From an uncultured Acidobacteriota bacterium (lineage in GTDB: Bacteria > Acidobacteriota > Vicinamibacteria > Vicinamibacterales > UBA2999): a stretch of 64,000 bases of DNA. Location of the stretch: positions 12,656 to 76,655 of the forward strand of contig CAVTGK010000010.1 of assembly GCA_963734095.1 (NCBI GenBank), written 5' to 3'. Below are positions 4,859 to 54,868 of this stretch, piece by piece; the stretch's first letter is position 1, and each line of letters starts with the position of its first letter. A program made the translations under genes and the position numbers. Under the pieces are notes generated by a model that was not told where the DNA came from, ran no database searches, and worked only from the letters and a program-made list of their open reading frames with translations.

Positions 4859-4941
4859 CTTCCGGCTCAAGCCGGAAGCCACGAGTGTTGAACAGATATC
4901 CGTGGCTAAAGGTATCCGTGGCTTCCGCCTTCAGGCGGAAG
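4859..4941. repeat. foldback element, CGGAAGCCACG / CGTGGCTTCCG units with two flanking mini-hairpins
   Basis: CTTCCGGC-tcaa-GCCGGAAG (4859-4878). CCGGAAGCCACG (4872-4883) is complementary to CGTGGCTTCCG (4917-4928). CTTCCGCC-ttca-GGCGGAAG (4922-4941). Lies between convergent stops 4783 and 4961. Confidence 0.8.
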
Positions 4942-6273: not shown

Positions 6274-7461
6274 GTGATATTGCGGCCTCATCGGCGCGCG
6301 ATTCTCCGCGGCGGCCTGTCGTGGGGCGCGGTGGTCTTCGTTGGCGGAACCGAGGCGCTCGTCGAGCACTTGTGTGCCCAGCCACTCTGCGACCCGGCGC
6401 CGCTCGGCGAGCTGGTCGCTCTCGTCCCGCTTCACGGCGATCGCGTGCAGCAAACCCCGCTCGGTCAGATGGTCGGCGGTCCTGGACTCGATGCGCGTCT
6501 CTTCACCGACCTGTCGACGCTTCAGCCGGGGAAGCTCCTCACACCCACCGCCGAGATGTTCGTGCGCACGGCCGTCCCCGCGGCGCTTCGTACGATCCCC
6601 AACGCCTGGTCGATCAGCGTCAGCGGGTTTGCGCGGTCAACCCTCGACATCGAACGACTCCGGCGCGATGCGCGGCCGATGGGTGCGCATCTCATCGAGT
6701 GTTCCGGAAATGCTGACCCGAACAACTTCGGATTGATGAGCGTCACGGACTGGACGGGCGTGCCGATCGCTCGGCTCGTTACTGAACTCGGCGTCCAAGC
6801 GGGCGCCAGCGGGCTGCTGATCAGCGGCATCGACGAGCTGCACCAGACCTCGCGCAGCTCGAACCCGGGCGCCAGTTGGATATTGCCCCTCGACCGCCTC
6901 GAACGTCTTGGCGCATTTCTGGCCGTGACGATGAACGGCGAGCCCTTGACAGCCGACCACGGCGCCCCGGTTCGTCTCGTCGTTCCCGGGTGGTACGGCT
7001 GTTCCTGGATCAAGTGGGTCAACGAACTCAGACTGGTTGGCGCCGACGAAAAGCCGACATCGCAGATGATCGAGTTCTCCCTGCGGACACATCAACCGGA
7101 TCGCGAAGCCCTCGCCCGCGATTACGAGCCGCCCGTCATCGACGTGGCCGCCACACCGGTTCGGGTTGAAAAGCGTCGCGTGGAGGGTCGGCTCGAGTAT
7201 CGAGTGGTGGGGATCGTCTGGGGCGGTGAGCGGCCGGTCGAGCAACTCGCCATTCGATTCAACGTCGGCGAAGCCCCGCGCGTGTTCTCGATCTGCCCGA
7301 CGCCGACGACGCATCGTACATGGTCGCTGTGGGACTACCGGTGGCGCCCGACGACTCCAGGCGTCTACAGCATCGCGCTGCGTGCCACCGACCCGTCAAT
7401 CCGCACCCGTCGCCTCGATGTGTCGTACTACGTCAGACGCGTGGTGATCGACGAAGTCTGA
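6274..7461 (+). CDS. molybdopterin-dependent oxidoreductase (sulfite-oxidase/YedY fold), Tat-type leader
   Basis: Intact 395-aa ORF. RRAILRGG twin-Arg leader. HLIECSGN..., MNGEPLTADHGAPVRLVVPGWYGCSWIKWV are typical of the Mo-binding oxidoreductase domain. Confidence 0.8.
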   Translation: MILRPHRRAILRGGLSWGAVVFVGGTEALVEHLCAQPLCDPAPLGELVALVPLHGDRVQQTPLGQMVGGPGLDARLFTDLSTLQPGKLLTPTAEMFVRTAVPAALRTIPNAWSISVSGFARSTLDIERLRRDARPMGAHLIECSGNADPNNFGLMSVTDWTGVPIARLVTELGVQAGASGLLISGIDELHQTSRSSNPGASWILPLDRLERLGAFLAVTMNGEPLTADHGAPVRLVVPGWYGCSWIKWVNELRLVGADEKPTSQMIEFSLRTHQPDREALARDYEPPVIDVAATPVRVEKRRVEGRLEYRVVGIVWGGERPVEQLAIRFNVGEAPRVFSICPTPTTHRTWSLWDYRWRPTTPGVYSIALRATDPSIRTRRLDVSYYVRRVVIDEV

Positions 7462-7463
7462 GG

Positions 7464-7705
7464 GCGGGTGCGACGGGTGCGACAGGTGCTGGGGTGCGAT
7501 GGGTGCGGTGCGGTGCACTGGTGCAGAGAGGTGCACTGGTGCAGAGCCGTGCACTGGTGCAGAGGTGCACTGGTGCAGAGGGCGCGCTGCACCTGCGCAC
7601 CTGCGCACCGCACCTGCGCACCTGCACCCGTCGCACCTGCGCACCTGTCGCACCGCACCGCACCTGTCGCACCCGTCGCACCTGTCGCACCCGACGCACC
7701 TGTTC
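7464..7705. repeat. foldback palindrome, arms of GGGTGCGAC / GGTGCACTGGTGCAGAG units and their complements
   Basis: 7467-7489 (GGTGCGACGGGTGCGACAGGTGC) is the perfect 23-nt reverse complement of 7660-7682. G-rich tandem units on the left, GCACC/GTCGCACC units on the right, centre near 7585. Fills the spacer between convergent stops 7461 and 7704. Confidence 0.9.
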
Positions 7706-8725
7706 ACAGCCCCATCCGATGCGGCTGCCACTGCAGCCCCAACGCCATCAGGCGGTCGAGGAGGTGGGGGTACGACATCTTGGCGAGCTTGACCGACTGC
7801 GCGAAGTCTTCTTCCTCGGCCAGCTGGGGATTGGCATTGGCTTCGATCACATACGCCTTGCCGCTGGCGTCCATGCGGAAGTCGATGCGGGCGTAGCCGG
7901 AGAGGTCGAGCGCCCGGTAGGTGCGCTTGGCCAGATGCTGAATCTTCGGCGCGATCCCATTCGGCAGCTGCGCCTCCGCCGTGTCGATGCCGTGCCGCTT
8001 CTGGTACTTGACGCTCCACTTCACGCGTTCCGTCGCGATCCGCCAGTTGCTGTCGGGCATCTTGGCAAACGACATCTCCCACACCGGGAACACCCGGAGG
8101 CGATGATTGCCCGATCACGCCGACGTACAACTCGCGGCCGTCGATGAACTGCTCGATGATCGCCGGCGTGAGAATCGTGTCGTGGATGTACTTCACGCGC
8201 TTGATCAGTTGCTCCTCGTTGGCGACCACGGAGGCCTGCGAAATCCCGATCGACGACTCGTAGGTGAGCGACTTGACGATCATCGGATACGTGAGCTTCT
8301 TCGGCAGCACCGGCTTGCGGTTGAGCGGCACGACCGTGAAGTCGGGCGACGGGATCCGGTGATAGGCCAGCAGCTTCCGCGCCAGCGCTTTGTCTCGCGA
8401 CAGCGTCAGGCCGCGCGGGTTGCAGCCGGTGTACGGCACGCCGCATCAACTCCAGGTAGCTGACGACGTTCTGGTCGAAGACGCCGATGTCGGCGAACGC
8501 CTCCATCAGGTTGAAGACGATGGTCGGCTTGAACTCGTCGATCGCCTGCCGGATCGGCGTCAGGTCGTCGTGAACGCCGATCACGAGCAGCTCGTGCCCG
8601 CGCTTGCGCAGCGTGGTGACGACGTCCCATTCCATCCGCCACTCGGGATTGACGTCGGCGAGCGGCACGTCTTCCTTGGGCACGAGAGCTTTGTGGACGA
8701 GAACGAGGACGCGATACTTCTTCAC
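7704..8725 (-). CDS. D-alanine--D-alanine ligase-like ATP-grasp enzyme; frame-disrupted (>=2 shifts)
   Basis: Pieces 8021-8725, 7396-8439 and 7704-8093 join into one ATP-grasp protein: MKKYRVLVLVH..., KALARKLLAYHRIPSPDF, YPMIVKSL, IIEQFIDGRELYVGVIG, GYARIDFRMDASGKAYVIEANANP. Confidence 0.8.
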
Positions 8726-9826: not shown

Positions 9827-9955
9827 AGGTTCCAGGGTTCCAAAGTTCCAAGGGTTCCAGGGTTCCGACCAGGACTCTCGGGTTCGGCGCTCCAATCGAA
9901 CCCGGCACCTGATTCCGAACTCTGGAACCTTGGAACCGTGGAACTTGTGGAACTC
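9827..9955. repeat. foldback palindrome, GGTTCCA(G/A)(G/A) units / TGGAACC units
   Basis: Left arm GAGGTTCCAGGGTTCCAAAGTTCCAAGGGTTCCAGGGTTCC. Right arm TGGAACCTTGGAACCGTGGAACTTGTGGAACTC. The loop holds an inner hairpin CGGGTTCG...CGAACCCG. Confidence 0.9.
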
Positions 9956-11831
9956 TATCCGACGTGAATCCGCGGACGCCGCTCCGGACGCGGCTCCGCC
10001 TGGCGTAAGACTTCACGCGCCACGGGCGCCGTGTCGCCCTCGCCAAACGCGAGGAACCGCAGCAAGATAGGTGATCGGGTTGCCCTCCGTCCACCCGAAA
10101 TACGCGTGAGGCGTCGCGCCGGTGCGATCGCGCAGGTCGAGCAGGATGGCGGCGATCGCGTTGGGTATCGCCGGACTCCTCGTCGACAGAATCTCGTAGG
10201 GCCCGACAATCGCGCGCCCTTGATGCAGCGCACCGGAAAACTCCGACGCGTCGCTCGGGTAAATTTCGAGAAACACGACCCGCGCCTCCGGCGGCAGATG
10301 GTGCGCCTCGCGCGCTTCCTTGAGCTTTGCGGTCGTACTCTCCGCCTCGAGGCCCGTGTCAGGCCGGTTCGCAATGATCCGCAGCGGCGTGCCCACTGCG
10401 CCGGGCCACCACTGCGTGCGGCCGGCTCGTCGTAGGTCACGCCCGTGCGCACGCAGCTCGGTCGACCGCATCACCCGCGATACCAGCGAGGTCGTGACCA
10501 TGGTGACGATGAACCAGATTGCGATCGTCAGCCCTTCCGGCCGTTCGATGATGTTGATCGACCGTCGCGTAGACGAACACCGCGATCACCACGCCAAACG
10601 CAACGCGCCGCCGAGGCGTCGAGATCGCCGCGGCGAACGCGACCGAGGTCATCAGGACCAGGACGCCAGTGGCGTAGGCACCGGCTTGCTCATCGACGTC
10701 CGCGTCGAAGAACCAGGATCGTGACCAGAGAACGCGATGCCGGTGATGATCAGCACCAGCGGGCGGCTGGCACGTGCCCATTCGGGCGCCATGCCGTAGC
10801 GCGGCAGGTAGCGCGGGATCAGGTTGAGGAGCCCGGCCATCGCCGATGCGCCGGCAAACCACAGGATGGTGATGGTCGACAGGTCGTAGACGGTACCGAA
10901 CACGTCGCCAAAGTCACGATGGGCGATGTAGGCCAGCGCGCGACCGTTCGCGGCGCCGCCGGCCTGGAAACTCAGGCGGCGGAATGAGCAGCGTGGTGAC
11001 GATGCTGCTGCCGACGAGCATCACGCTCATGATGAGGGCTGCGGTCAGGAGCAGCTTTTTCGTGTTGCGAATTCGGCTCGCCAAGCCGTTCTTCCGTCTG
11101 TCTCGCCCTCGCCCTTGACGAGCGGCATGACGGCCACACCGGTCTCGAACCCGGAGAGGCCCGAGCGCAAGCCGCGGGAACAGCCAGCAGCGCCGCCACG
11201 ATCGCCATGCAGTAGTTCGGCTCCTGCTGAAGCAGCCCGTCGCGCCAGTAGGCAACGTTTCGGGATGGGTCGACGATGTACAGAAGCCCGTTGCCGACGA
11301 CGACCGCGTTCAGTGATCAGGTAGACGACCACGATCATCACGGCGACCCAAACCGCTTCGCGCATGCCTCTGACGAAGACTGCGCCCAGTGCGGCGATCA
11401 GCGCGAAGGTGACGGCGACTGGGGTGCGGCGACCACGCCCGGGCGAAGGGGTTTTCCACGATGTGAGCGGTCGCGTCCGCGGCGGACAGCGTGATGGTGA
11501 TGACGAACGCCGTGGCGGCAAACCCAGCAGACACAACACCAGCGCCTTGCCGCGCCAGCGCGGCAGCTTCTCTTCGAGAACCGCAATGCTGCCCTTGCCC
11601 GTGCGGGCTGAGTTCGGCGATGCGCGCGTAGGCCGGTAGCGCGCCGAACAGCGTCACGAGCACCAGGATCAGCGTGGCAATCGGAGACAGAAAGCCAGCG
11701 GCCAGGAACGCGATGCCGGGCTGATAGCCCAGGGTGGAAAAGTAATCGACCCCAGTGAGGCACATCACCTGCCACCACGGGGCGGTGTGGTGGCGGCTTG
11801 CCAAGTGGTCCCGCAGGCTCCTCGAGTCCAT
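9955..11831 (-). CDS. polytopic membrane transporter, APC/amino-acid-permease-like, with soluble C-terminal domain; heavily frame-disrupted
   Basis: Hydrophobic fragments in several frames: [58 protein letters not shown]; [26 protein letters not shown]; [19 protein letters not shown]. The 3' end is either 9955 or 10013. Family assignment is tentative. Confidence 0.5.
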
Positions 11832-12022
11832 GGTACAGCCAGGTCAGGACATGCCCGCGAGGGCGGCGCCACGGAAATCACGTGCGCCGATGATAACGCC
11901 TGGGGGCGCCTCGTCGTCAAAGTCGTCGACCGGGAGGCTCAAAGACCGGCAGTGCTCCGACCGCGACATTAAGTGTGGTGTTACACCTTCGCCGGTAGTT
12001 AGCCGAGGCTCGACGACCGCTA

Positions 12023-13659
12023 CTATTTGAGCGCGGCGCGAGCCTCCTTCAGCTCAGGGAGCCCGGGGTCGGCGAGCCGCCAGTTGTTCAGGAACTGCTG
12101 AAAAGCGCGCCGGCTCTTCGCCGTCTCCCCCGCCTTTGCCGCCGCGCGAGCGAGACCGAGCACGGCGCGGCTCCGGTTGGGAGTGCGCGCCAGCGTACGC
12201 TCGAACCAGATCACGGCCTCCTTGGGCGCGTCCCGCCTGCAGCAGCAGCTCGCCGTACAGCTCGTCGGCGCCCTTGACCGGATACGGCCGCCCGATCGGC
12301 TTCGGCATGCGCGCCTGGGGCGCACGTCGCGCGCTCCATCGCCGGCAAACGCCTCCTCCGGCCGCCCGCCCGCCATCGCATGAGCGCGCCGCAGCTCATT
12401 CGACCATCACCGCTGCCTGCTCGCGCAGCCCGGCGTCCGGCCCTGGCCGCGTCCGCCTTCTGCAGCAGCTCGCAGCGCCGCGTCGGCCGGGCGAGGTCGC
12501 CGAGCTTGACCGCGCTCATGCCCAAGCGCGAAGAGCTCGTCGATGTTGTCGAACGACTCTGCCCTTTCATCTCGCTCCAGCGCTCGCTTTCGATCACGTA
12601 GCGCGCGCGCATCGATCCGCGGTCGTTGCGCAGCGCCATCGGGCCGCTGCCCCGCCCGATCTCGCTGTCGCGCGTAGTGGTGGCCGCCCGACTTGCTCCG
12701 CCGCTGTCCACGACCTTCATCGCCTGCATCGACCTGCCTGCAGCGCCTCGCGCGGCTTTGTCGAACCGCCCCTGCTGCGTCCACTCGTAGTGCAGCCACG
12801 ACAGGCTGTGAAAGTCGCGCAGCGCGACCGACAGCCCTCTGCGCGCCGCCCAGGCGATCGACGCGTCCCAGGACGCCTGGTCGGTCGCGGCGGCCTCGTC
12901 CCACAGGCCCAAGCTGCACGAACGCGTGCGCCGGCATGTGGAGCGCGTGGCTCGCGGCGGGCGCGATCTTCGCGTAGGCGCGGGCCGCGGGCAGCGCTCG
13001 TGCGCGCGAGCGTGCGCGTGATCGTAGGCGTGCAGGATGTAGTGCGCGCGCGCCGGGATGCTGCGGATTGCGCTTCGAACACGCCTTCGGCGATCGCGCC
13101 GGCCTTCTCGCGCAGCGGCAGCGCCTCATCGCCCCGCGGCAGACGTCGCCAGCAGCGACAGCGCATGGAACGCCTGCGCCTCGTCGTCTTGCGGGAACTT
13201 CGCCGCCAGCGCGCCATCGCATCGGCAGTACGCCTTGTCGCGCGCAGGCTTGTGCTCCCGCTGCCGTACAGCGCCTCGACCGCCGCCAGGTACATCTGCT
13301 CGCGCGGCGTCACCGCCTTCGCGGCGCGCGCCTGCGGGCGTCGGCCCAAGCTTGGCCAAGCGCCGCGCGCGCCTTGTCGGGCTCTTCGTGAAACCAGAGC
13401 GGCTGATTGAAGCACATCGCCTCGCCCCAATACGCCAGGGCAAAGCCTGGGATCGATCTGTCTGCGCCGCGCGAAACGCGTCGATCGCTTCTTCGTAGCC
13501 GAAGCTGTGCAGCCACGCCACGCCGCGCATGAAGTCCGCCTGCGCCGCCGGCGCGCCGGAGTTGGGAAACGCGATCGGTGCCAAGCGGCGCGCGCGGCTG
13601 CGCCGAGCAAGCTGCGGCGCTCGCCAGCAGCAGGACGAGCGGTCAGCGAGCCGAAACAT
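12023..13659 (-). CDS. TPR-like secreted protein of unknown function; heavily frame-disrupted
   Basis: Fragments: APIAFPNSGAPAAQADFMRGVAWLHSFGYEEAIDAFRAAQ, FALAYWGEAMCFNQPLWF, AKIAPAASHALHMPAHAFVQLG, DFHSLSWLHYEWTQQGRFDKA. C-terminus is EAVIWFERTLARTPNRSRAVLGLARAAAKAGETAKSRRAFQQFLNNW. Confidence 0.5.
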
Positions 13660-13671
13660 CGAACGGCAGCG

Positions 13672-13708
13672 TAGCAACAAACAAAGGGCGCTCCGTGAGG
13701 AGCGCCCT
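13672..13708 (-). terminator. intrinsic terminator downstream of the TonB-dependent receptor gene
   Basis: On the minus strand, AGGGCGCTCC-tcac-GGAGCGCCCT (13685-13708) is followed by TTTGTTTGTT. Lies about 90 nt after stop 13798. Confidence 0.55.
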
Positions 13709-13797
13709 ATTCCGTGCCGGCGAAGCCGGTCCTGCCGAGCGGCTTCGATAGCCGTCCGAGGTCCGTGCCCCGCGCGCCAGTCGCGCCGTGCTCCGGT

Positions 13798-16700
13798 TTA
13801 GAACGTCAACCGGAACATCAACTGCGTCAGCCGCATGAACCCCGACTGCACGCGGATCTGGCCGAACGTGGCGCTGCCAACGTGCGTGATCGGCCCGCGG
13901 ACCTTGACGGTGTTGGTGATGTTCAGCACTTCGAGTCTGATCTGGCCGCGCATGCTGCCGCCAAGTCGCAGGTCCTTGCCCGCCACGAAGTCCCAGTTGT
14001 TGCGGTGCGGCGTGCGGACGTCTCGGATCAGTTCTGCGGCACCGTGCCAAGCGTGAACAGGCCGGGGTTGGCGTAGGCCGTGCTGCGTGATCCAGATGTC
14101 TTGGATGCGCTCATCGCGTGCGGCCGTCCGGTTTCGGGGTCGCCAGTGCCCGGGTTGCACGCGCTGCATCGCGCGCAGAAGGCACTCGACAGTCGTTCGA
14201 ATTCATCGAGAGCGACATCGGGAAGCCGCTCTCGAACGAGATGATCGACGAAATCGTCCAGTCGCCGAGGATCGGCCGCGGCCGACGCCGCTCTGCGCCC
14301 ACCGCTTGCCCTGCGCCGAACGGCAGCTCGAAGATCGGGCGAGAACACGATCTTGTGCGGCACGTCGAGGATGCCGACGCGCGTACTCCGCCTCGAGATC
14401 GTAGGCGTTCTGCGCGTTGCCGTTGTTGCCGGGAGAAGAAGTTGCCCTCGCCGAACTGGTTGTCCTCAGCCGGCTGTAGGTGTAGTTGATGCGCCCGCCC
14501 CAGCCATTGGTCACGCGCTTCTCGAACTTGAAGATCGCCGCGTGATACTGGTTCTTGCCCAGCGTGACCTGCCGCATCAGGATGTTGCCGAACTGCGGGA
14601 ACGGCCGCAGCAACTGCGCGCGCGCGACGGTCGGGCTGGTGACGTTGAAGCCCTGCCCGGCCGGCAGACCGAAGAACGGATTCGGCACCTGATCGTTCAG
14701 CGCCGTTCCGAGCGCCAGGTGCCGCGGATCGACCTGGTTGATGTTGATGGTGCCGTCGTTCGATGCCGCCGAGGCCGAGGTCGCGGCCGGTCGCGCCGGC
14801 ATACTCGAAGCCGACGGCGATGTTGCCCGGCAGCTCGCGGTTGAGGTCGACCGAGTACTGTGCACGTACGGCGCGCTCCTTGTCCTGATCGATGAAGTCG
14901 ATCTGGCCGCCGACGCCGGTCAGCGCGCCGCAGCGCGTTGCCGACCGGCTGCAGCAGGCCGCTCGGGAACGGGTTGCTCAGCGTGACCGTCGGCCGGAAC
15001 TGGCCCTGCTGGATGAGCGTCACCTGGCTGGAGCCGATCTGGCCGTAGTTGGTGGTGTCCGGCGCCTGGTAGTTCCACGGCGCCCAGTAGATCCCGTAGC
15101 CGCCGCGGAGCACGGTCTTCGGGTTGAACGAGTAGACGAGGCCCAGCCGCGGCGACACCTTGAGCGCCGGCGGATCGCCCTGGTACCGTTGGCGCCGTTC
15201 TGCGCCGGCATACACGAGCCCGCCGCGTACAGGCTGGCCGTTCGACGACGACGTTGCCGAGCGCGCCGCCGGAGGCGTCAGCGTGCGATCGAAGGCGACG
15301 GTGATGCCGTCGTCTCTTCTCGCGCAAGCCCGGCCTCGTGCTCGAGGCGGAGGCCGTAGTTGAGCGTGAGCTTCGGGTTCGACGCGGAAGTCGTCCTGCG
15401 CGTAGACGCCGTAGTAGTTCGTGAACAGCTTGAGCGGCGTCGACACGCCGACGCGTGCTCGTCTGCCGGATCGCCCGAGGGATAGCCGAGCAGGAAGCTC
15501 GCGAAGGCGTTGCCCGACGTGGCGCTGTCCCGTTGCGCGTCGGGTTCGACGACGTGAAGCAGCGGTCGAAGCGGAAATCGCCGGCGCCGTCTGCGAACGA
15601 CTGGAAGTCGAGCCCGATCAGGCGGTAGTCGACGCCGAACTTCAGCGTGTGGCGGCCGAGCAGCTTCGACAGCGCGCCGTTGGCGCCCCACGAGTGCCAG
15701 TTGATGTTCACTGGGTCGATCGCGCCGGCCATGCGCGCCGAAGTCCGCGCTGTCGTAGTCGGTGACGCGGACCTGCGGGAACTTGTCGACCTGGATCGGG
15801 CTGAGGAAATCGGCGGGAAGCCGAGCGTCCGCCGGATCGAAATCGGCGACAGCGTGTTGTCGTCGATGAACTGGTGAAGCCGTAGCGCAGCGTCAGACCG
15901 TGTTGTTGCTCGGAAGCCACGTGTTGTTCAGCGCCAGCACGTTGCACGCGGCGCTGCAGGATGTAGTCGCCCGGATCGGCGAACCGGTTGGCGCCGGTCA
16001 GACCCGGCTCCCAGTAGTTGGCGCACGGCTCGTCGGTCTTGTTGTACAGGTAGAGCCCGGTCAGCGAGACCGCGTCGCTGAACCGGTGATCGACCTTGCC
16101 GGTGTACATGTAGCGCGCGGTCGTTGATCTCGCGCGGTGCGGTGAAGTTGGCGCTGCCGTTGCTCACGTCGCTGGTCCGGCGTCGGCAGGTAGCTGGTGA
16201 TCGCCGCGCGCCACCGGATTGATCCGGCTGGCCGGGATGACGTTGCCCGGGAACGGCGTGCGGCCCGTTCCGGTGGCGGATCGCCCGTCAGCGGGTCGTA
16301 GATGACGACGAGATGGCCGGCGCTGTCGAAGCTCTGCGAGAAATCGCCGTCGCCGCTCGCGGCTGGTCGGGAAGCGCAGGTCGCCGTTGCGCGTCGTGTT
16401 CGATCCGTAGCCTTCGAACGCGAACCAGAAGAACGTGCGGTTGTTGAATGATCGGGCCCGCCGAAGCCGCCGCCGCCCAGGTGGAAGTAGGTATCGGGCT
16501 TGGGCTACGCCGGCAGCTCGGAGAAGAAGTTGTTGGCGCGCGCCCCACTTCGGCCGGTTCTGATAGAAGCCGCTGCCGCGCCATCGTTGGTGCCCGACTT
16601 GGTGGCCACGTTGAACGTGCCGCCGCCGGTGCGCCCGGTCTCGGCGTCGTAGGTGTGGACCTGCACGTTGACGTCTTCGAGCGCCTCGATCGATCGGGTT

Positions 16701-17347
16701 CGCCGACGCGCGGTTGCGCATGTCGGTGATCGGCACGCCGTCAACCAGGTAGTTGTTGCCGCGGCGCGTGCCGCCGCCGAGCGACAGCAGCGACGCGTTG
16801 GTCTGATCCTGCTGGCGGTTGAACTGCGCGTCGCCCGAGGCGACGACCGTCGGCACCGTGACGGCGAAGAGGAACGCGGCGCGGCCGGCGCTCGGCAGCG
16901 TCTCGAGCTGCCGTGAGTCGATGACTGCGCCGGTCGACGCGTTGGAGGTATCGATCAGCGGCGACTGCCCGGTGACCGTGATGGTTTCCTGGAGCTGGCC
17001 GACCTCGAGGTGGATGTCGATGGTGATGAACTGCTGGGCGCCGATGCGGACCGCCTTGTTCTCGTAGGTCTTGAAGCCCGTGAGACGTGGCCTTGACCGT
17101 GTAGGTCCCGGGCGGCACGGCGGCGAAGTTGTACTCGCCCTGACTCGTTCGAGACCGCCTCGCGGGTCTGGTTCGTGCCTTCGTTGACTATTTGCACCGT
17201 GACGCCAGGGATGACGCCATTGGCGTCTCTGACGGCGCCGCGAAGACCGCCGGTAAACGACTGTGCCGCTGCGCTTCCGGCAATCGCCATCGCCAGGACC
17301 ATGATGCCCAACGTCCTGACGACTTTCATGGACTTCAGACTCCTCAT
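13798..17347 (-). CDS. TonB-dependent receptor with N-terminal carboxypeptidase-regulatory-like domain; heavily frame-disrupted (>=10 shifts)
   Basis: N-terminus MRSLKSMKVVRTLGIMVLAMAIAGSAAAQSFTGGLRGAVRDANGVIPGVTVQIVNEGTNQTREAVSNESG. Plug motifs NASTGAVIDSRQLETLP, NYLVDGVPITD. C-terminus ...QSGFMRLTQLMFRLTF, with the terminal aromatic residue typical of outer-membrane barrels. Confidence 0.8.
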
Positions 17348-17510
17348 ACTCGCTCCTCCACAAACAGGCCGGCTAAAGCTCGGGCGCCTCGGACTTTTCC
17401 CGCCGGAACCACTCCCGCCGCGTAGCCGCGGCTATCTGAGCGGACACACTTCAAAGCTGAAAAAACGCAAAGGGTTTCGCGGAGTCTACGGCAGAGGCAC
17501 TGTAAACACA

Positions 17511-17674
17511 AGGTGTCTGGGTGCCTAAAGTGCCTGGAGTGCCTGGGTGCTGGTGCTATGGAGCCGGCCTGCGTCAATATGCTGGGACGAAGTGACTCAT
17601 CTGGATCCGGCACTCGCACCAGGCACCAGTCAGGCACCCCAGACGCACCTAGGCACCTCGGCACTCTAGGCACC
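17511..17674. repeat. foldback palindrome, GTGCCTGG / CCAGGCAC units, in a divergent promoter region
   Basis: Left arm GGTGTCTGGGTGCCTAAAGTGCCTGGAGTGCCTGGGTGCTGGTGC. Right arm GCACCAGGCACCAGTCAGGCACCCCAGACGCACCTAGGCACCTCGGCACTCTAGGCACC. Lies between starts 17347(-) and 17718(+). Confidence 0.85.
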
Positions 17675-17717
17675 TTGCGCAGCTAATGCTACTATTCGCG
17701 AAATTCCAGGGGGTTCC

Positions 17718-18341: not shown

Positions 18342-21092
18342 TGGCAGACCAGACACCGCAGCGCACCGCACCTGCCGCACCGAGCGCACCCGGCGCACCT
18401 GCCGCACCCGCGACAGGTCAGGCACCCGCGGCACAAGCGGCACCCGGGGCGAAACCTTCGTTTCCACCCGTTGACCCGAGCAAGTTCAAACTGATCGGTC
18501 ACAACTACCAGACGCCCGATCTGGTCGCGAAGGTCACCGGCAAGGCCAAGTACGCCGAAGACTTCCGCGCCGACGGCATGCTGTTCGCCAAGCTGATGCT
18601 CAGTCCGCGGCCGCACGCGCGAGTCGTCAACATCGATGCGAGTCGCGCGCTGGCGATGCCAGGTGTGCACGCGATTCTGACCGCGGACGATCTGCCGCCA
18701 CCACCCGCCCCGCCAGGACAGGGTGCACCAGCGTGCCGCGGCTGCAGGTGGCGCTGCGACGCTCCGGCCGGCGGGAATGCACCGGCTGGTGCTCCGGCCG
18801 CGCCGCCAACGGGCCCCGGTGCAGCCGGCGCCCCGGGAACGCCGCCCACCGCCGCCGCCGTTCCGCCCGCGCAACAGCAGCCGCAGACGCCGCCCATTCC
18901 AGCGGAGTTCTGCCTGGCGAAAGAGGCGCTCTACGAAGGCGAGCCGATTCTCGCGGTCGCCGCGGACAGCGAAGAACTGGCGGCCGCCGCCATCGAAGCG
19001 ATTCGAGTCGACTTCGAACCGCTGCCGTTCGTGATCGATCCGCTCGATGGCCTCAAGCCGGGCAGCCCGAATGGACGAACCGAAGGCAACGTGTTCGTGG
19101 GCGGCGAGGTCAAGACGATCAAGTGGACGCAGGCACACTTCGATCAACTCGCTGCCGGTAAGTGGCCCACTGATGCGGAGGCTGGCGAAACCACGGTGTG
19201 GGGCGATGTCGACGCCGGCTTCAAGGAAGCGGACCTCATCGTCGAAGACGTTTCGTATCAGCAGGACACGGTCCATCAGCCGCTCGAATCGCGCACGGCG
19301 ATGGCGTACTGGCAGAACGGCAAACTGTATCTGCACGGCTCGACGCAGAGCCTGTCGCGAACCGTCGCGACGGTCGCCGGCTGGGTCGGCGTTCCGCAGC
19401 GCGGACGTGGTGATCATCAGCGAATACTGCGGCGGTGGTTTTGGCAGCAAGATTCCGGGCTCGCAGACGATGGCGATTCCGGCGCTGCTGTCGAAGAAGC
19501 TGAATGGCCGCCCGGTGATGATGCGCATCTCGCGCGAAGAAGAAACCTACATCGGACGCAAGCGCCCCGGCTTCCAGGCGTGGGCGAAGATGGGGTTCAA
19601 GAAGGATGGTCGGGTCACGGCCATCGACTCGTTCATCATCGAGAGCAGCGGGCCGTACCGTCGTCAAGGCGACAACGGTCAGGCGGCGAACCTCGCGACC
19701 CTGCTCTACACAGCGCCGAACGCGCGCTTCCGAGGAATCTCGGTGGCGACCAACACGCCGCCCGGCGTCTCGCAGCGCGCACCTGGTGGACTTCAGAGCT
19801 CGATTCTGTTCGAGCCGCTTGTCGCACGCGCGGCCAAGGAGCTCGGAGTGGATCAGGTCGCGATTCGCAAGATCAACGCGCCCGTCAATGGCACGCAGTT
19901 CGGGCTGAACCCGCCGGCACAGGCGAATCGCCCGCGAGGCAAAATCACGAGCTCGTATGTCAAGGAGGCACTCGACCGCGGCGCCGAGCTGTTCAACTGG
20001 GAAGAGCGAAAGAAGCGCAGTGGCCAGCGACGCGGCACGAAGGTGACGGGCGTCGGCGTCAGCACGAGTACCTTCGTCGGGGGCTCAATCGGAGTCGATG
20101 GACTGCTCACGATTCGACCCGACGGCAAGATGTACATCCATCAAGGCGTCGGCAATCTCGGCACCTTCTCGGTGGCCGACACCGCGCGTGTGTGTGCCGA
20201 GGTGCTCGACTTCCCTTGGGAGAACGTCGTGGTGGCCTGGGGTAACACCGGCAACCACGTGGCGTGGAGCTCTATTCAAGCGGGCAGTCAGACGACCCAT
20301 GCACACACCCGGGCGAACTTCGCCTCGGGCTCTGACGCGAAGCGGAAACTCCAGGAACTCGCCGCGCTCGAGCTCGGTGGGAACGCGGATGCTTATCGCG
20401 TCGGCGGCGCAGGAGTCGCCGGGCCGGGCGGTCGATTGACCTGGGCGCAAGCCGCCGAACGCGCGATCAAACGCGGCGGCAAGTTCGACGGACACGAGCT
20501 GCCCGGCGATATCAACGCGATGACGAAGACCTCGGGCGCGGCGCTGGCCGGCCTCGGGTTGATGGGGGTCGCACGCGACAACTATCCGCGCGATGGCTCG
20601 ACCTATTCGTTTGTCGCCGGCTTTGCCGAAGTCGAAGTGGACGTCGAGACCGGCGTCTACACCATCGTGGACTACCTGGCGGTCGCGGATGTGGGCACGG
20701 TGCTGCACCCGCGAAGTCTGGGCGGGCAGATCCTCGGTGGCGCCATCCAAGGCATGTCGCACACGCGCAGCCAGAAGCTGATCTACGACACGCACTACGG
20801 CGTGGCCATCGGCAAGCGCATGTATCACAACAAACCTCCAACCATGCTCGACATTCCGATCAACGCGCGGTGGGAGGCGGTCAACATTCCGGATCCGGGA
20901 AACCCGGTCGTCGGCGCCAAGGGTGTCGGGGAACCCGCCGTCGGGAATGGCGGTGCCTCCGTACTGTGCGCGCTGGCCGATGCGGTCGGATACGACATCA
21001 TCCGCCGCACGCCGGTGCAGCCGGAGCAGGTGATGGCAGTGGTAACCAAGGACCCGCGGTTCCGCGTCGAACCGTTAACGGCGTACATCTAG
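18341..21092 (+). CDS. molybdopterin-binding large subunit of xanthine-dehydrogenase-family hydroxylase (PaoC-like); >=1 frame shift near 19395
   Basis: ATG at 18341 overlaps the upstream TGA (TGATG). The 18338-20245 frame joins the 19047-21092 frame: DLVAKVTGKAKYAEDF, VHQPLESRTAMAYW, YCGGGFGSKI, SQRAPGGLQS, GVGEPAVGNGGASVLCALADAVG. Carries Pro/Ala-rich low-complexity N-terminus and insert. Confidence 0.85.
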
Positions 21093-23332: not shown

Positions 23333-23482
23333 TCGCCGCTTCGCGGCTCGGAGGGCGGCCGCCTGCGGCGCGGAGGGCGGCGCTTCGGCCGGAAGGCTGC
23401 TCGCTAACGCTCGCAGGTAGGCCGGCCATTCGGCCGGAGGGCCGGCGCTCGGCGAGGCGAAGCCGAGCCGCCTACCGGCACG
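23333..23482. repeat. GC-rich tandem-unit block (GGGCGGC.CTTCGG..GGA type), left arm of a split foldback
   Basis: Units CCGCTTCGCGGCTCGGA, GGGCGGCCGCCTGCGGCGCGGA, GGGCGGCGCTTCGGCCGGAA... start directly after stop 23329. Confidence 0.7.
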
Positions 23483-23877: not shown

Positions 23878-24027
23878 CGTTCTACCAGCCCTTCGGCGAG
23901 CGTAAGCGAGCCGCCCACCGCGAGCGGAGCGAGCGGCCCTTCGGCGAAACGAAGCGAGCCGCCTATCCGTGAGCGAAGCGAACGGCCGTCCGCGAGCGCA
24001 GCGAGCGGCCCGTTAGCAGGACACGCA
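23878..24027. repeat. GC-rich tandem-unit block (GCGAGCGGCCC / AGCGAGCCGCC type), right arm of a split foldback
   Basis: About five units; their reverse complement (GGGCCGCTCGC..CGCGGA) belongs to the same family as 23333-23482 and 33535-33700. Ends before stop 24065(-). Confidence 0.7.
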
Positions 24028-29796: not shown

Positions 29797-33531
<3,735 letters not shown>

Positions 33532-33534
33532 AAG

Positions 33535-33700
33535 GCCGCTGGTCGCGGAGGCCGCTTCGCGGGAAGGCCGCTTCGCGGAGGGGCAGCTTCGCTGGAGGGC
33601 CGCTTCGCGGAAGGGCTGCTTCGCAGAAGGGCCGGCCTCGCTTCGCTCGGCTGGAAGGCCGCGCCTCCGGCGCGGAAGGGTCTCGAGCGCCCTCCCTGGC
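33535..33700. repeat. tandem GGCCGCTTCGCGGA(A/G)G-type units; left arm of a split foldback
   Basis: At least 5 units directly after the argG stop. 33630-33658 matches the reverse complement of 37904-37933 at 26/29 positions. Confidence 0.8.
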
Positions 33701-33934: not shown

Positions 33935-36632
33935 TCATTGGTTCTCGGGCGTCACCACGTCCATGATCCAGATGTCGCCGAGATCGACGCTCCAGGTGAG
34001 GTACAGATCGCGTTCGCCAACGGCCAAGTCTAGGCTGCCCAAATTACCTTGCCTGCCTGAAAAACGTGTCACCCGCCGCTCCTTGCCGTCGGCGAGCGTG
34101 AATTCCCAAATGTCATTACACCCTCGCAGTCGGAACGTGCCGGGTGGAAAGCATGGGGGTTCGAAATAAACGCGCTTGCCATCTGGTGACCACCGGAAGA
34201 AATACGCAGGACCCTGAGTCACCCGTCGTGGAGGTCCCCCTGAGGGAGGCACCCACCATAGACGGTAGATGCCATCGTCAAGATTCGTAGAGAAAGCCAA
34301 CTGTTTCCCATCCGGGGACCATTGTGGAAAGAAACTCCATGGCGATCCCGTTACCACCTGGCTGACCTCGCCGCCCGTGGCGGGCATCACAAAGATGCCT
34401 CCTCCAGCCCTGGTGGAGGAGAACGCGATGTTCTGGTTGTCAGGAGACCATGAGGGGATACTGGTCCTCCCCTTCACCCGTGGTCAGCTGAACTGCCGGC
34501 CCTCCGTCTGCTGGGACCACCCAGATCTTGCGATCCCCACTTCTATAGGAAAAGAACGCGATCTGCTTTCCATCTGGCGATAGGCGTGGACCGAAATCCG
34601 GAGCTCGGTCGCTGGTTATCTGTCTCGGATCGTTCCCGTGAATCGGCAGGCTCCAGATGTTTTGAATCCCGCCTCGATCGGAGTCGACAAGCAGGTGTCC
34701 TGCGTCCGGCAGGAGATCGAGCTGGGTGATCCTCGCGTAGTCGAACGTGAGTTGCTCGGCGTCAGCCCAGACCGCCTCGCGATCTTCGCGAATGGGCACG
34801 CGCCACACGTTGGCCACGATGCGACCTTTCGAATAGGCCAACTTCCGCCCATCGGGAGTGAAGGCCGCCCGCCGCATGTCAATCCCCACGGTGATCGGCA
34901 CCGCCTCGCCTTCGGGCCGTCCGTCCGTCGAGATGTGTTGTTGCCACAGGTCCATGCTCCCTTTGCGGTTGGAGACGAAGAAGAGCGTGCGTCCGTCCCT
35001 GGACCACTTCGGGCTCCAATCGCTCGATATTCCTCCGGTGATGGAGAATGCTTGTGCGTCCGAGGCGCGCAGCAGCCAGATGCGCGAGGCCACCGATGCA
35101 TCGTTGGGGGCGCGCACGTAGGCGAAGAGGCTTCTGTCGGGGGACCAGCTCAGATCAAAGCGATTGCCTCCCCCGCCTGGAATCCGCATGCGACGCGACG
35201 CGCGGGTTCTCAGCGTCACGATTTCGATGAACGTCGCCTCCGGGATACACCGCGACGTACGCAAGCTCTGCCCCGTCCGTCGACCACGCTGGACTGGCAA
35301 ATGCCTGCACATCTGCAGATGCACGTGGCGACATCCGGGTCGCCTGCCCTCCGATCGCAGGGATCACATAGATGCCCCCGCCGTCTCGGTCCGACACAAA
35401 CGCGATCTGATTTCCGTCGGGCGACCAGGCCGGCTCTATGTCGAGTTCTTTGTGATCGGCGGTGAGGTTGACTGCAGGTCCTCCGGTCGGCTGTGCCACC
35501 CAGATATCCGCGTTGCCGCTCTGGTCCGAGTCGTACGCGATGCGTCCACCATCCGGCGACCACGTCGGATGATTCTCGAGACCGGCAGCGGACGTGACTT
35601 GGACCGGGTTCTCGACGCGAGGCACGATGACCTGCGGACGGTTTCGTTGACCTCAAGAGGCCGACGCCAACGAGGAGTAGTAGTCCAGCAGCAGCCACGA
35701 TCAGCAAGCCCACGTTCGTTGATGTCAGGCGAGTTTTTCGAATGGGTTGCGATGAGCCGAGAAGCTCTCCGGATTCGAGCTCTCGTCTGAGCTCGCTCAG
35801 CTCGTTCCGGATGTCGAGCGCGCTCTGGACGCGCTTCGAGACGTCTTTCGAAAGGCAGCGTCGCACTAACCTCGATAGCTCGCGAGGAATCCCCGAACGA
35901 ACCTCGGAAATTGACGGCGGGACATCCTTGATGATCGAGGAGATACGTCGGAAGGCGTGGGTCCCTCGAATGGCGGACGTCCCGTCAACATCTCATAGAA
36001 GACGATCCCCAGCGAGAAGATGTCGGAGCGCGCATCGATAGTGTCTCCACGCGCCTGCTCCGGAGACATGTACTTGCACGTGCCAACGATGACTCCCTGC
36101 TCGGTCTGTGCCGCCGTGAGGAGATTGCTGGCCGCGCCGGCCCCGGCGAGTCGGTCGCTGGCCTGTGCAAGGCCGAAGTCGAGCACTTTCACGCGCCCAT
36201 CGAGATCGACCATCACGTTTCCGGGCTTCAGATCGCGATGCACGATGCCCTGGGCGTGAGCGGCGGCGACGGCATCGGCAAGGGCGACCGCGATATCGAA
36301 AAACCTCTCCAGCGCGAACCCCTGCCTGGGCAAGAGCGCGGCGAGGGTGGCTCCCTTTACCAGTTCCATCGTGATGAAATGGACGCCGTCGACCGCTTCT
36401 ACCGAGTGAACCGTGACGATGTTGGGGTGATTGAGCGCAGCGATGGCCCGCGCTTCTCGTTCAAAACGCGCGCGACCCAATTCGCTGTCGGCCAGCTCCG
36501 GAGGCAGAATCTTGAGGGCAATTTCGCGATTCAGCTTCGTATCGCGCGCCCGATACACTTCGCCCATCCCGCCGGCCCCAGGACAGAGAGGATTTCGTAC
36601 GGTCCAAGGCGCGTGCCAGCGGACAGGGACAT
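33935..36632 (-). CDS. Ser/Thr protein kinase fused to TolB-like PD40/WD40 beta-propeller repeats; frame-disrupted (>=5 shifts)
   Basis: MSLSAGTRLGPYEILSVLG (shift in a C4 run at 36576-36579), then GGMGEVYRARD, HRDLKPGNVMV, DFGLA, YMSPEQ. A TM segment, then repeated WSPDG...IAF/LAF propeller blades down to the stop at 33935. Confidence 0.85.
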
Positions 36633-36711
36633 GAGAGTCGAGGGCGATTGTAGCGACGTTGCCCCCTTGCTGCAAAGAGAAAGGACACCCCCTCAGGCTC
36701 GCTGCCCAGCG

Positions 36712-37507
36712 CTTTCGCAGCGACTGCCAGCAAATCAGCGCGCACCCGAGCGAGAGGAACGCCTCGTGGATGTCGGCCCGCTTGTCATACCGCACGCGCA
36801 GGCGGCGAAACTGGTTGAGCCAGGCAAACGTCCGCTCCACGACCCACCGCCACCGGCCCAGGCCACTCCCGTGCGCGGTGCGACGCATGGCCAGCAAGGG
36901 CACGATGTGACGAGTCCGGAGACCGCGCCGAATGCGCGGCCGCGTCGTAGCCGCGATCCCCGAGCACACAGTCCGGCCGCTGCCGCGGTCGCCCCCGTTC
37001 GCCGTGCAGCGGGGGAATCGCATCCACCAACGCCAGGGCTTCTTGCGAGTCGTTCCGGTTCGCGCCGGTCAGGCGAACCGCGAGCGGCACGCCCCGCCCG
37101 TCGCAGATCAGATGGCGCTTGCTCCCGCGCTTGGCCCGATCGGTGGGATTCGGACCGGTCTGGTCACCGCCGTACACCGCGCGGATGGAACAACTGTCCA
37201 CGACCGCCCGCGACCAATCAATCTGGTCGTCGCGCGCGAGCCAATCCAGCAGCGCAAAGTGGATCAGATCCCACACGCCCGCCTGTTGCCAATCGCGCAG
37301 GCGACGCCAGCACGTCATCCCCGACCCGCACCCGAGTTCCTGCGGGAGCATCTGCCAGGGAATACCGCTGCGAAGGACGAAGACAATGCCGGTGAGGCAC
37401 GCGCGATCCGAGACGCGCGGCCGCCCGCCTCTTGGCCGACGTGGTGGAATCGGCAAGAACGGTTCGACAAGATCCCACAACGGATCTGGAAGCAGCGCGG
37501 CGGCCAT
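36712..37507 (-). CDS. IS5-family DDE transposase; 1 frame shift near 36935, 3' end unclear
   Basis: MAAALLPDPLWDLVEPFLP..., GIPWQMLP, DSCSIRA, VLGDRGYDAAA then (shift) IRRGLRTRHIVPLLA..GSGLGRWRWVVERTFAWLNQFRRLRVRYDKRADIHEAFLSLGCALICWQSL. No stop is seen before the frame runs into the kinase gene. Confidence 0.85.
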
Positions 37508-37844: not shown

Positions 37845-38003
37845 AGCTGCTTCGCGAAAGGCCGGCCTCACTGTGTTCGGCCTGACAGGCCAAAGCCTAG
37901 AGACCCCTCCAGCCGAGCGACGCGAGGCTGGCCTTCCGCGGAGCGGCCTTCCGCGAGCGGCAGCGAGCGGCCCTCCGTGAAACGGCCCTCTGCGCCGAAG
38001 GCG
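37845..38003. repeat. inverted copy of the GGCCGCTTCGCGGA-type block; right arm of a split foldback
   Basis: GGCCTTCCGCGGAGCGGCCTTCCGCGAGCGGCAGCGAGCGGCCCTCCG... It also has its own short left arm: GCTTCGCGAAAGGCCGGCCTC pairs with GAGGCTGGCCTTCCGCGGAGC. Ends just before stop 38008(-). Confidence 0.8.
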
Positions 38004-38449: not shown

Positions 38450-38570
38450 TTCAGTTACAAGTTCCAAGTCCAAATTCTGCGGCGCCTTTCGGCGCCGCAG
38501 CGCTCCATCAACTACGAAACTTCTAACTCAACTCTGAACTTGTAATTGTAACCTGTAACTATCGCGATCG
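38450..38570. repeat. foldback palindrome, GTTACAAG / CTTGTAAC units, with embedded GC hairpin
   Basis: Left CAGTTACAAGTTCCAAGTCC. Right GAACTTGTAATTGTAACCTGTAACT. The same unit recurs at 58927-59003. Confidence 0.8.
38477..38500 (-). terminator. perfect 10-bp GC hairpin downstream of ilvD (candidate terminator)
   Basis: CTGCGGCGCC-tttc-GGCGCCGCAG. On the minus strand it is followed by AATTTGG, a weak U tract. Confidence 0.45.
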
Positions 38571-49523: not shown

Positions 49524-49524
49524 C

Positions 49525-49593
49525 AGCTCCAGGGTTCCAGGGTTCCAGGGTTCCAAGGTTCCAAGGTTCTAGGTTCTGGGTTCCAGGGTTCAG
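49525..49593. repeat. tandem GGTTCCA(G/A)G units; left arm of the cassette enclosing the four-helix-bundle gene
   Basis: About 9 units starting 2 nt after the moaA stop. Confidence 0.9.
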
Positions 49594-49734
49594 TGTCTGT
49601 TGGCGATCGCAGAAAGTGAGACTGCACGCAGGCCTGAATCGATCACAAATTTCCAACGAGAACGTGACGAAGCTTCGATATCGCTGATCCTGCACGAGAT
49701 TCATCGTGGCCGCCTGCTTGCACGCGAGTGTCTC

Positions 49735-50118: not shown

Positions 50119-50140
50119 CACGAACAGCGGACGGAGCCGC

Positions 50141-50240
50141 GGAACCTTGGAACCTGGAACTTTGGAACTCTGGAACTTTGGAACCGTGGAACTTTGGAAC
50201 CGTGGAACTTTGGAACCGTGGAACCGTGGAACCTTGGAAC
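50141..50240. repeat. tandem (T)GGAACC units; right arm of the cassette
   Basis: About 13 units (GGAACCTTGGAACCTGGAACTTTGGAACTCTGGAACTTTGGAACCGTGGAAC...), complementary to 49525-49593. Ends 11 nt before stop 50252(-). Confidence 0.9.
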
Positions 50241-50251
50241 TTTTCCGGAGG

Positions 50252-54815: not shown

Positions 54816-54868
54816 GGGACAGGGGTCTCGAACGTTCCCCTGGAACGTTCGCAGTAAAAGGAGTCAGC

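Follow-up and report, generated by a model that had tools for sequence, protein, structure and literature searches.

We analysed a 64-kb stretch of contig CAVTGK010000010.1 from an uncultured bacterium of the Vicinamibacterales (Acidobacteriota), hereafter the window, and identified a set of intergenic foldbacks in it. Each foldback is an inverted pair of microsatellites, in which one arm is a tandem array of short units and the other arm is the complement of that array. Such pairs occur lineage-wide in the intergenic DNA of Vicinamibacterales. They vary by whole units, lose arms, are placed at stop codons and can enclose a gene, and in one related locus the loop segment is found inverted. They can also collapse to, or grow from, a palindrome of a single unit. 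We propose that their stems of 7-9-nt tandem units grow by slippage and would act at the 3' ends of the adjacent genes, a combined model to which we give an even chance.

Anatomy, position and turnover of the foldbacks

The exemplar is a single 242-nt foldback (7462-7703): its left half consists of G-rich tandem units, to which the right half is complementary. It occupies an entire spacer, from the TGA (7459-7461) of one gene to the convergent stop (7704-7706) of the next. Its G-rich 5' arm (7465-7580) contains outer GGGTGCGAC-type units (7465-7516) and an inner 18-mer, GGTGCACTGGTGCAGAGA (7512-7580), as defined by Tandem Repeats Finder (TRF), inverted-repeat search and folding; the units that TRF reports for this half are CGGGTGCGA, GGTGC and the 18-mer. 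The C-rich 3' arm (7582-7703) is the complement, with units GCACCTGC, CGCACCTGT and GTCGCACC (TRF and a perfect 23-nt complement). Positions 7467-7489 and 7660-7682 form an exact 23-nt inverted repeat, and other registers pair at 84-92%. TRF and the inverted-repeat search thus bear out the preliminary description of this DNA, which had taken the locus for one foldback with a perfect 23-nt inverted repeat. As RNA, the exemplar folds into one stem of -192.8 kcal/mol, against -128.7 ± 4.8 kcal/mol for dinucleotide shuffles (z -13.3). The opposite strand folded as RNA has a z of -11.8, and DNA parameters give -112.4 kcal/mol (z -13.3).

We identified at least eight further loci in the window that share this build (TRF, inverted repeats and RNA folding against shuffles; z -2.4 to -8.4). 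Folding at 15 other putative spacers of the window is close to that of the shuffles (z -2.0 to +1.9). The architecture of a tandem arm and a complementary arm, as first described, is real and recurrent at the exemplar and eight other loci, and these nine fold far better than dinucleotide-shuffled controls. The loci upheld are 9828, 17512, 38452, 44613, 53155 (weak), 55577, 58929 and the split element 49528/50243. Three earlier entries were dropped from the list: 4859 has another build, 63964 is a lone array, and 33530/37930 is not one element.

The arrays have a narrow range of unit lengths. Across the window and 43 related loci (~0.75 Mb), arrays of at least three copies have periods of 7 nt (61 arrays), 8 nt (49 arrays) and 9 nt (35 arrays), with 21 arrays of period 6 and 11 arrays of periods 10-12. 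This distribution is not codon-driven. At least seven different units occur inside the window, at least ten when relatives are counted, and many share a GGTnCC-like core. As had been claimed, the unit changes from locus to locus; it does so even at one orthologous spacer between close relatives. Several foldback centres are ordinary, non-repetitive small GC hairpins, one of them with a T-run.

The arms are also polar, a property that had been seen earlier for the exemplar only. Among 37 non-redundant foldbacks, GGT/GGG outnumbers ACC/CCC in the 5' arm of 30, the reverse holds in 2, and 5 are ties (binomial p 2.5e-7). Of 34 5' arms, 27 have a positive G-C skew and 25 a positive T-A skew. Each element is its own reverse complement, so the 5' arm is identical on either strand. 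The two foldbacks of reversed polarity, whose loops measure 827 and 1005 nt, may be pairs that arose by chance. The polarity also prompted us to consider a telomere-fusion-like origin, in which repeats are added to both 3' ends of a break; no evidence bears on it, and it was set aside.

Foldback arms start 0-15 nt from stop codons, a placement with which both a terminator role and an RNase III role would be consistent. Three window junctions are convergent (4859, 7464 and the split element 49528-50243), four are co-directional, with the element beside the upstream stop (9828, 38452, 55577 and 58929), and one is divergent (17512). Convergent junctions also predominate among relatives with both neighbours called, a crude tally that relies on a weak gene caller and includes several cases of the query junction itself. 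The elements had been described at convergent, tandem and divergent junctions; they do occur at all three, with divergent cases rare. Consensus U-tract terminators number 11 in 1-20 kb, where 12.0 ± 3.9 would be expected, and so show no enrichment. Hairpins directly after stop codons are widespread across bacteria (PMC13155455).

In the model that we propose, whose account of origin and turnover is largely shown here, the seed is a short palindrome just past a stop codon. Replication slippage adds or removes whole units in both arms, which would be kept as mirror images by hairpin-templated repair and template switching or by selection for pairing. Arms can be lost, swapped for another unit or shrunk back to a one-unit palindrome. 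Transcription from either side would produce a stem of great length and stability directly behind the stop codon. This stem would stop or insulate read-through between neighbours, which are often convergent, and would shield the 3' end from exonucleases. It would also be a double-stranded substrate for RNase III, in a genome not enriched in U-tract terminators. In a gene-bearing subset, a small gene (TIGR02436 or GxxExxY) lies in the loop, which is the stem-plus-ORF (open reading frame) layout of the 23S rRNA intervening sequence (IVS). The loop can invert because the arms are inverted repeats.

Turnover was followed in relatives of the oxidoreductase gene that precedes the exemplar. These are Acidobacteriota / Vicinamibacterales metagenome-assembled genomes (MAGs), with oxidoreductase protein identities of 98% (loci L001 and L003), 96% (L002), 78% (L004) and ~68% (L005-L007). 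Synteny with relatives held over the first ~20 kb, and alignment breaks coincide with elements. Foldbacks of the same kind are present in many related genomes.

The exemplar junction differs greatly among these relatives. L001-L003 have spacers of 80-93 nt that retain the C-rich 3' arm only, plus one residual G-rich unit. L006 has a 158-nt foldback of the exemplar unit (z -9.3), L005 has a foldback of a different unit (GGTAGGC / GGTGGGC), and L009 (3671-4145) has 473 nt of mini-hairpin arrays (z -9.8). In L004 and L008 the spacer is 4-7 nt long and the element is absent. At the orthologues of 9828, L002 keeps the element, L004 has four 5'-arm units only and L001 has an unrelated AGGGCGC array. 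At the orthologues of 17512, the unit is kept in L001 and L003, and the L003 arrays are longer on both sides. In many more distant loci, the oxidoreductase gene is followed closely by a foldback of another unit. One locus found in 10 Joint Genome Institute (JGI) samples is identical in all of them, except that exactly one 9-nt unit of the 3' arm is missing in two. Gain, loss and unit turnover are thus seen between orthologous spacers, which may hold a full element, one arm, another unit or nothing. Turnover proceeds by whole-unit slippage, arm loss and unit replacement, and the hairpin persists despite sequence replacement.

Foldbacks of GGTTCCA or GGTGCCT units, together with a cassette for a four-helix-bundle protein, were also seen in contigs from bins labelled 'cyanobacterium' or 'Acidimicrobiia' (L039, L040 and L056). 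Either the phenomenon extends beyond the Vicinamibacterales or these contigs are mis-binned.

Several points weigh against a role of the stems at 3' ends. First, the element is dispensable: L004 is without a foldback at three of three orthologous junctions (one of which has a solo arm), and one-armed remnants persist elsewhere. Second, one clear case (17512) lies in a divergent promoter region. Third, the stems lack a trailing U-tract, and their G/T-rich 5' arm and A/C-rich 3' arm give a polarity that runs counter to the A-tract/U-tract arrangement of bidirectional intrinsic terminators. Selection for pairing alone does not predict so near-universal a polarity (30 vs 2). Comparison of sense and antisense stability is divided: in four cases the sense strand is the more stable, by >10 kcal/mol, and in four or five the antisense strand is, by 3-6 kcal/mol. 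Finally, the RNA-level role of the stems is one that we infer.

Gene-bearing foldbacks and alternative explanations

The split element of the window encloses a gene. Its 5' arm, eight GGTTCCA-type units (49528-49591), begins 5 nt past a MoaA-like stop codon (49521-49523). Its 3' arm, twelve TGGAACC-type units (50133-50243), lies 15 nt after the stop of the loop gene and 9 nt before a convergent disulphide-isomerase stop (50252). Folded as a 731-nt RNA (49520-50250), the element has a closing stem of ~65 bp around the gene (z -5.9). The loop gene (49735-50118, plus strand) encodes a TIGR02436 four-helix-bundle protein that is S23p/Avd-like and belongs to PF05635, '23S rRNA intervening sequence protein' (Pfam E 3.7e-17; NCBIfam TIGR02436 E 4e-16). 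The nearest structure is PDB 2GSC (Xanthomonas XCC0516).

A sigma-54-type -24/-12 motif, TGGCCGCCTGCTTGCA (49707-49722, plus strand), precedes the ATG of the loop gene by 12 nt and is the sole perfect match to TGGC-N7-TTGCA in the window. By-eye reading of leaders shows that GGC-N7-TTGCA, followed by 12 nt and a start codon, recurs in ~10 related loci, just upstream of the four-helix-bundle gene (L044, L045, L046, L048, L052, L056, L057, L067 and L070). A motif at this distance from the start codon implies that the predicted TIGR02436 mRNA would be nearly leaderless.

A stem around an S23p-family ORF is again the layout at more than 10 related loci. The first 43 loci contain only one other family member (L013), and it too is enclosed by inverted arrays, GGGCTTG / CAAGCCC. 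We retrieved 12 metagenome relatives of the loop gene; two are cut by the contig end, and about eight of the ten others are clearly flanked on either side by inverted 7-9-nt arrays, whose units are GGTTCCA, GGTGCCT, GGTTCAA, ACGTTCT and GTGATGA. Two relatives are less clear: L046 has arrays in direct orientation and a small upstream foldback, and L055 has an upstream array only. Three further loci, fetched by exact protein, share the layout; the gene is found between inverted arrays in L056, the L057 group, L067 and L070. A search of the literature on the flanks of TIGR02436 or GxxExxY genes, or on Vicinamibacteria/Luteitalea repeats, found nothing relevant.

One junction, between convergent LacI and short-chain dehydrogenase (adh_short) genes, was identified in four states. 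In L072/L073 it is empty: the 36-nt spacer contains a near-palindrome, CCAGGTTC-A-GAACCTTGG, in which a single GGTTC/GAACC unit stands to either side. In L067/L068 a four-helix-bundle gene is surrounded by GGTTCCA arms of 8-10 units. In L070 the arms are of the L067 type, and the leader and gene point the other way with respect to the flanks: the cassette gives a plus-strand alignment and the flanks a minus-strand one, and the loop has an extra ~400 nt. In L071 the junction holds a TIGR04256 GxxExxY (PD-(D/E)XK) gene with other repeats. The unit present once on either side at the empty L072 junction builds the 6-10-copy arms of L067 and L070, as would be expected of a seed palindrome. The suggestion that foldbacks are hot spots of insertion or recombination gains direct support from this junction, which is empty, filled by a cassette in either orientation or filled by a different cassette.

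In L031 (19178-19903), inverted TCCGGTA arrays ~650 nt apart surround an Hsp15-like S4-domain ORF. Loop genes are therefore not limited to the two IVS-type families.

A rival reading, which we consider rather doubtful, is that the foldbacks are termini of a selfish IVS-like or foldback-type mobile element with the polar arrays as its ends. Full forms would carry TIGR02436 or GxxExxY nuclease genes, and short forms would be ORF-less derivatives or empty docking sites; hairpins or gene ends would be targeted, and elements could invert. There is a precedent in the 23S rRNA IVS of Coxiella and Leptospira, in which a stem of terminal inverted repeats surrounds an S23p ORF and which is regarded as selfish (PMC4990558). 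TIGR02436 genes between inverted arrays and the four states of the LacI/adh_short junction agree with this reading, and a polarity of 30 to 2 would be expected naturally if the arms were oriented ends. Cassette genes that are 75-84% identical were found in three different neighbourhoods, which suggests movement or paralogy. The loops, however, contain no recognisable transposase or integrase, and to our knowledge TIGR02436 has no mobility function. By-eye inspection found no target-site duplications at 7464, 9828 or 58929. Units differ among copies within one genome, tblastn found no remnants of the loop gene in the loops of short foldbacks, and by eye these loops share no homology with the leader or trailer of the gene-bearing element. 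The different contexts may simply be those of paralogues, and inversion is possible by ordinary recombination between inverted repeats.

A more specific and likewise unlikely proposal is that the foldbacks form an undescribed prokaryotic foldback system. Polar, microsatellite-armed 'docks' at gene ends would hold, invert and exchange small selfish cassettes, namely TIGR02436/S23p genes (with a sigma-54-type promoter) and GxxExxY nuclease genes. The gene-bearing elements would then be the chromosomal counterpart and likely source of the 23S rRNA IVS, ORF-less foldbacks would be empty or decayed docks, and polarity would stem from whatever mechanism builds or recognises the ends.

It is unlikely, in our estimate, that the foldbacks are a neutral by-product of a lineage-specific bias in replication or repair, in which 7-9-nt slippage and template switching at palindromes would inflate intergenic palindromes that are tolerated without function. 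The extreme turnover and dispensability described above fit this explanation, as do the spacers that have one arm or an array only (L001-L004 and L007) and the element in the divergent spacer at 17512. An excess of heptamer simple sequence repeats in several bacterial groups has been ascribed to polymerase slippage (PMC4692102, citing Mrazek 2007). Neutrality does not readily account for a hairpin that is kept at the same junction when the flanking protein is only 50-70% identical and the units are fully replaced. It is also at odds with the tight placement at stop codons, the depletion at divergent junctions and the balanced arms of short-loop elements, and it needs an extra mechanistic asymmetry to produce polarity.

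A role at the level of DNA or protein binding is very improbable. G-quadruplexes, cruciforms or iterated protein sites would act on replication, recombination or nucleoid structure. Units with GGG (GGGTGCGAC, GGGCACA and GGGCTTG) do have G-quadruplex potential in the 5' arm, as shown biophysically for Xanthomonas GGGAATC; the exemplar folds strongly with DNA parameters, and the GGTnCC-like core is common to many units. Many other units (GGTTCCA, GTTACAA and GGTCCAC) lack runs of three G, unit sequences are too diverse for one binding protein, and no candidate protein is linked to them.

There is scarcely any chance that the foldbacks are an artefact of long-read metagenome assembly (foldback chimeras or mis-polished repeats): they occur in long-read assemblies, in MEGAHIT-style short-read contigs with k141_ names (L005 and L072) and, with arms identical apart from one unit, in 10 independently assembled JGI samples, and the same elements lie at orthologous sites in independent MAGs. 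Indel errors are nevertheless likely, since many reading frames are broken and the alignment with a relative of ~95% nucleotide identity (98% for the flanking protein) has 70 gap positions in 5.3 kb; exact unit counts may therefore be imprecise.

If the stems of our model mark transcript ends, they would explain the repetitive, fast-changing spacers of abundant, almost uncultured soil bacteria, and the whole-unit variable-number tandem repeats (VNTRs) would be ready markers for strain tracking in metagenomes. The arrays are probably also hot spots for errors of assembly, polishing and gene calling in MAGs, and the ORFs listed for the window run straight through them. The nature and movement of the ORFs of 23S rRNA IVSs become open to testing through the link to TIGR02436 (S23p/Avd-like) and GxxExxY genes. 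Small genes of both families are very common, and we know of no function for them.

Remaining foldbacks and other features of the window

The foldback census was finally based on TRF array pairs with at least three common 7-mers. Other finders were discarded: minus-strand self-blastn missed most elements, 7-mer inverted seeds gave GC-rich noise, a raw 110-nt minimum-free-energy scan followed GC content, and a relaxed unit-complement search returned 6-mer false positives in coding DNA. Flanking genes were defined through Pfam matches on individual ORFs because three gene callers (a GC3 filter, codon log-odds and a 3-periodic Markov model) and a GC-phase profile left large gaps, owing to the many broken frames of the window.

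The exemplar lies 3 nt past the TGA of a molybdopterin oxidoreductase gene (6274-7461, plus strand; Pfam accession PF00174). On its other side is a C-terminal fragment of a D-Ala-D-Ala-ligase-like gene (7704-8093, minus strand; Pfam accession PF07478, matched in two frames). The stop codon of this fragment abuts the 3' arm, and its frame breaks near 8093.

We identified seven other foldbacks in the window besides the exemplar and the split element. A GGTTCCA foldback (9828-9953; arms 9828-9866 / 9923-9953; z -8.4) has a unique core hairpin (9877-9905) and abuts the stop (9955-9957) of a minus-strand ORF. The GGTGCCT foldback of the divergent spacer (17512-17675; arms 17512-17550 / 17645-17675; z -4.4) lies 43 nt upstream of a 2Fe-2S subunit gene that starts at 17718. 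Two foldbacks have GTTACAA-type units. One (38452-38559; arms 38452-38476 / 38536-38559; z -6.4) is flanked by two minus-strand genes and has a GC-rich core hairpin, CTGCGGCGCC-TTTC-GGCGCCGCAG (38477-38500). The other (58929-59000; arms 58929-58959 / 58979-59000; z -5.8) fills a 100-nt spacer between an ABC ATPase gene and a sigma-54 response-regulator gene, and its core is a mini-hairpin, GAGG-GCG-CCTC, followed by TTTT (58962-58978).

A GGGCACA foldback (44613-44690; arms 44613-44646 / 44664-44690; z -6.6) has a 3' arm that abuts a TTA (44690-44692); the sequence beside it, read by eye on the minus strand, would end in ...ELGWRFSF*. A GGTTCT foldback (53155-53254; arms 53155-53200 / 53209-53254) is weak (z -2.4 / -4.0). 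A GGTCCAC foldback (55577-55741; arms 55577-55620 / 55697-55741; z -7.4) begins 8 nt past an ABC-ATPase stop (55567-55569) and has another foldback, of the unit AACTGGC (55654-55673), nested inside it.

Other repeats of the window are built differently. The element at 4859-4941 consists of two 20-nt hairpins (4859-4878 and 4922-4941) around a VNTR, ATCCGTGGCYAAAGGT. This VNTR (at 4896; 13-16-nt unit) has two copies in the window, one in L001 and ~5 in L002/L003. A single GCCCTGT array (63964-63989) lies at the edge of the window, and any partner would be outside it. A second repeat type consists of tandem 12-23-nt units, each with a GCCGC-TTCG-GCGGC-like mini-hairpin, and occurs in both orientations: at 23335-23383 and, inverted, at 23888-24011, and also at 33530-33634 and 37930-37971. 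No recognisable gene was found between the arrays at 23335-23383 and 23888-24011. The pair at 33530/37930 was rejected as a single split element, as 4.3 kb separate its parts, a distance that contains several genes and a transposase fragment.

It had been stated that foldbacks fill almost every spacer longer than about 80 bp. This was an overstatement: several such spacers have none (for example 10502-10651, 11905-12022, 58164-58251 and 13611-13797). The spacer at 13611-13797 contains an ordinary hairpin with a T-rich tail (13685-13708, minus strand), which is probably a canonical terminator. In the orthologous spacers of L001-L004, tandem TTTCCGTG-type units take the place of a plain T-tract behind a comparable hairpin. 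A search of Rfam at the gathering threshold found no family anywhere in the window, rRNA included.

Tandem repeats also occur inside ORFs (18354-18411 and 43228-43300). Read by eye, the first has a 9-nt period and encodes an Ala/Pro-rich run at the N-terminus of an ORF that starts at 18338; its units resemble the GCACC units of intergenic arrays. Another ORF (35866-37023, minus strand) joins a Ser/Thr protein kinase domain to a DDE transposase fragment (Pfam accession PF01609), and is probably an insertion-sequence remnant fused in frame or a mis-joined frame. Several genes of the window are fragmentary or split between frames. These are the Ddl-like gene (7704-8439), a large outer-membrane beta-barrel gene (14000-17363), ILV_EDD (38576-39268, C-terminus only), a partial ABC ATPase (54565-55569) and MoaA (49095-49523, C-terminus only). 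Together with the alignment gaps, they reflect either long-read indel errors or widespread pseudogenes.

Comparison with known repeat systems

The preliminary description had not recognised the foldbacks as a described prokaryotic repeat class. They have a published counterpart, the inverted heptamer pairs of Xanthomonas (Rehm et al. 2015, PMC4692102). Xanthomonas campestris and X. axonopodis contain intergenic arrays of the heptamer GGGAATC, with 70-75 inverted pairs per genome that can form stem-loops or cruciforms (PMC4692102). These arrays are 89-93% intergenic, lie no more than tens of nt from stop codons, are under-represented at divergent junctions and are transcribed, and their length and sequence differ between close species (PMC4692102). 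The foldbacks described here resemble these pairs in their tandem units of ~7 nt (periods 7-9 dominate here), their intergenic location near stop codons, and their convergent arrays with the G-rich strand first, which is the same polarity. Xanthomonas has essentially one unit genome-wide, analysed as a G-quadruplex, whereas here the unit varies by locus and many units cannot form one. The phylum is also different, and loop-borne genes were not reported for Xanthomonas. In a supplementary table of the Xanthomonas study, a GGGAATC array overlaps the start annotated for XCC0516, which is the S23p homologue that has been crystallised (PMC4692102); this single case is suggestive of a gene-repeat association across phyla. 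The extension of the Xanthomonas observation to a distant phylum and to many units speaks in favour of slippage-built hairpins as a general class, not of a G-quadruplex curiosity.

The gene-bearing foldbacks resemble the 23S rRNA IVS in that an inverted-repeat stem surrounds a PF05635/TIGR02436 ORF, a layout found in the window only at 49528-50243. IVS stems, known from Leptospira and Coxiella, are RNase III substrates and are likewise seen as selfish (PMC4990558). They are located in helix 9, 25 or 45 of 23S rRNA, whereas the elements here lie between protein-coding genes. The IVS stem is also a unique sequence of ~28 bp; the stems here are tandem arrays of 45-110 nt, and the loop gene has its own sigma-54-type motif.

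Intergenic tandem heptamers are also known as the short tandemly repeated repetitive (STRR) sequences of cyanobacteria (Calothrix/Nostoc) and the TAACTGA repeats of Beggiatoa (PMC4679880). Like the arrays here, they comprise several unit types per genome and vary in copy number. Unlike them, they are mostly single direct arrays, and inverted pairs are rare (few in Nostoc and a single one in the Beggiatoa genome).

The definitions of better-known intergenic repeats do not fit, as had been argued for the repetitive extragenic palindromic (REP) and bacterial interspersed mosaic elements (BIME), miniature inverted-repeat transposable elements (MITE) and CRISPR. REP, BIME and REPIN elements are intergenic hairpins, often at 3' ends, where they stabilise the upstream mRNA. 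REP families have a conserved sequence genome-wide and are mobilised by RAYT transposases. The foldbacks share no such consensus, as units and loops vary by locus, and their arms are internally repetitive. No Y1 transposase was found among ~50 selected ORFs scanned against Pfam, and no RAYT-specific search was made. In contrast to MITE and Correia elements, inspection of 7464, 9828 and 58929 found no flanking direct repeats, and copies are not near-identical. CRISPR repeats are 23-50 nt long with unique spacers; units here are 5-18 nt long and adjoining, and the second array is inverted.

Eukaryotic foldback (FB) transposons have long inverted termini of tandem sub-repeats and a centre that is absent or carries genes, and their arms promote rearrangement. 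The likeness to FB termini that was pointed out earlier holds for the architecture, with inverted termini of tandem sub-repeats, and is reinforced by the gene-carrying loops; it is architectural only. On transposition, one junction is empty, filled and inverted, and related cassettes are found in three contexts. Unlike in FB transposons, no target-site duplication or transposase was found, and the host is bacterial.

Intrinsic terminators, including the type without a U-tract that has been proposed for high-GC bacteria, share with the foldbacks a GC-rich hairpin right after the stop codon that is frequent at convergent junctions. Their stems are 5-14 bp long, whereas the stems here are 20-110 bp long, have no U-tract and have the opposite arm polarity.

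The architecture is thus not categorically new, having been described in Xanthomonas in 2015. What is new here is the many unit sequences, the strict polarity, the phylum, and the link to small IVS-type gene cassettes that can be inverted and exchanged at one site.

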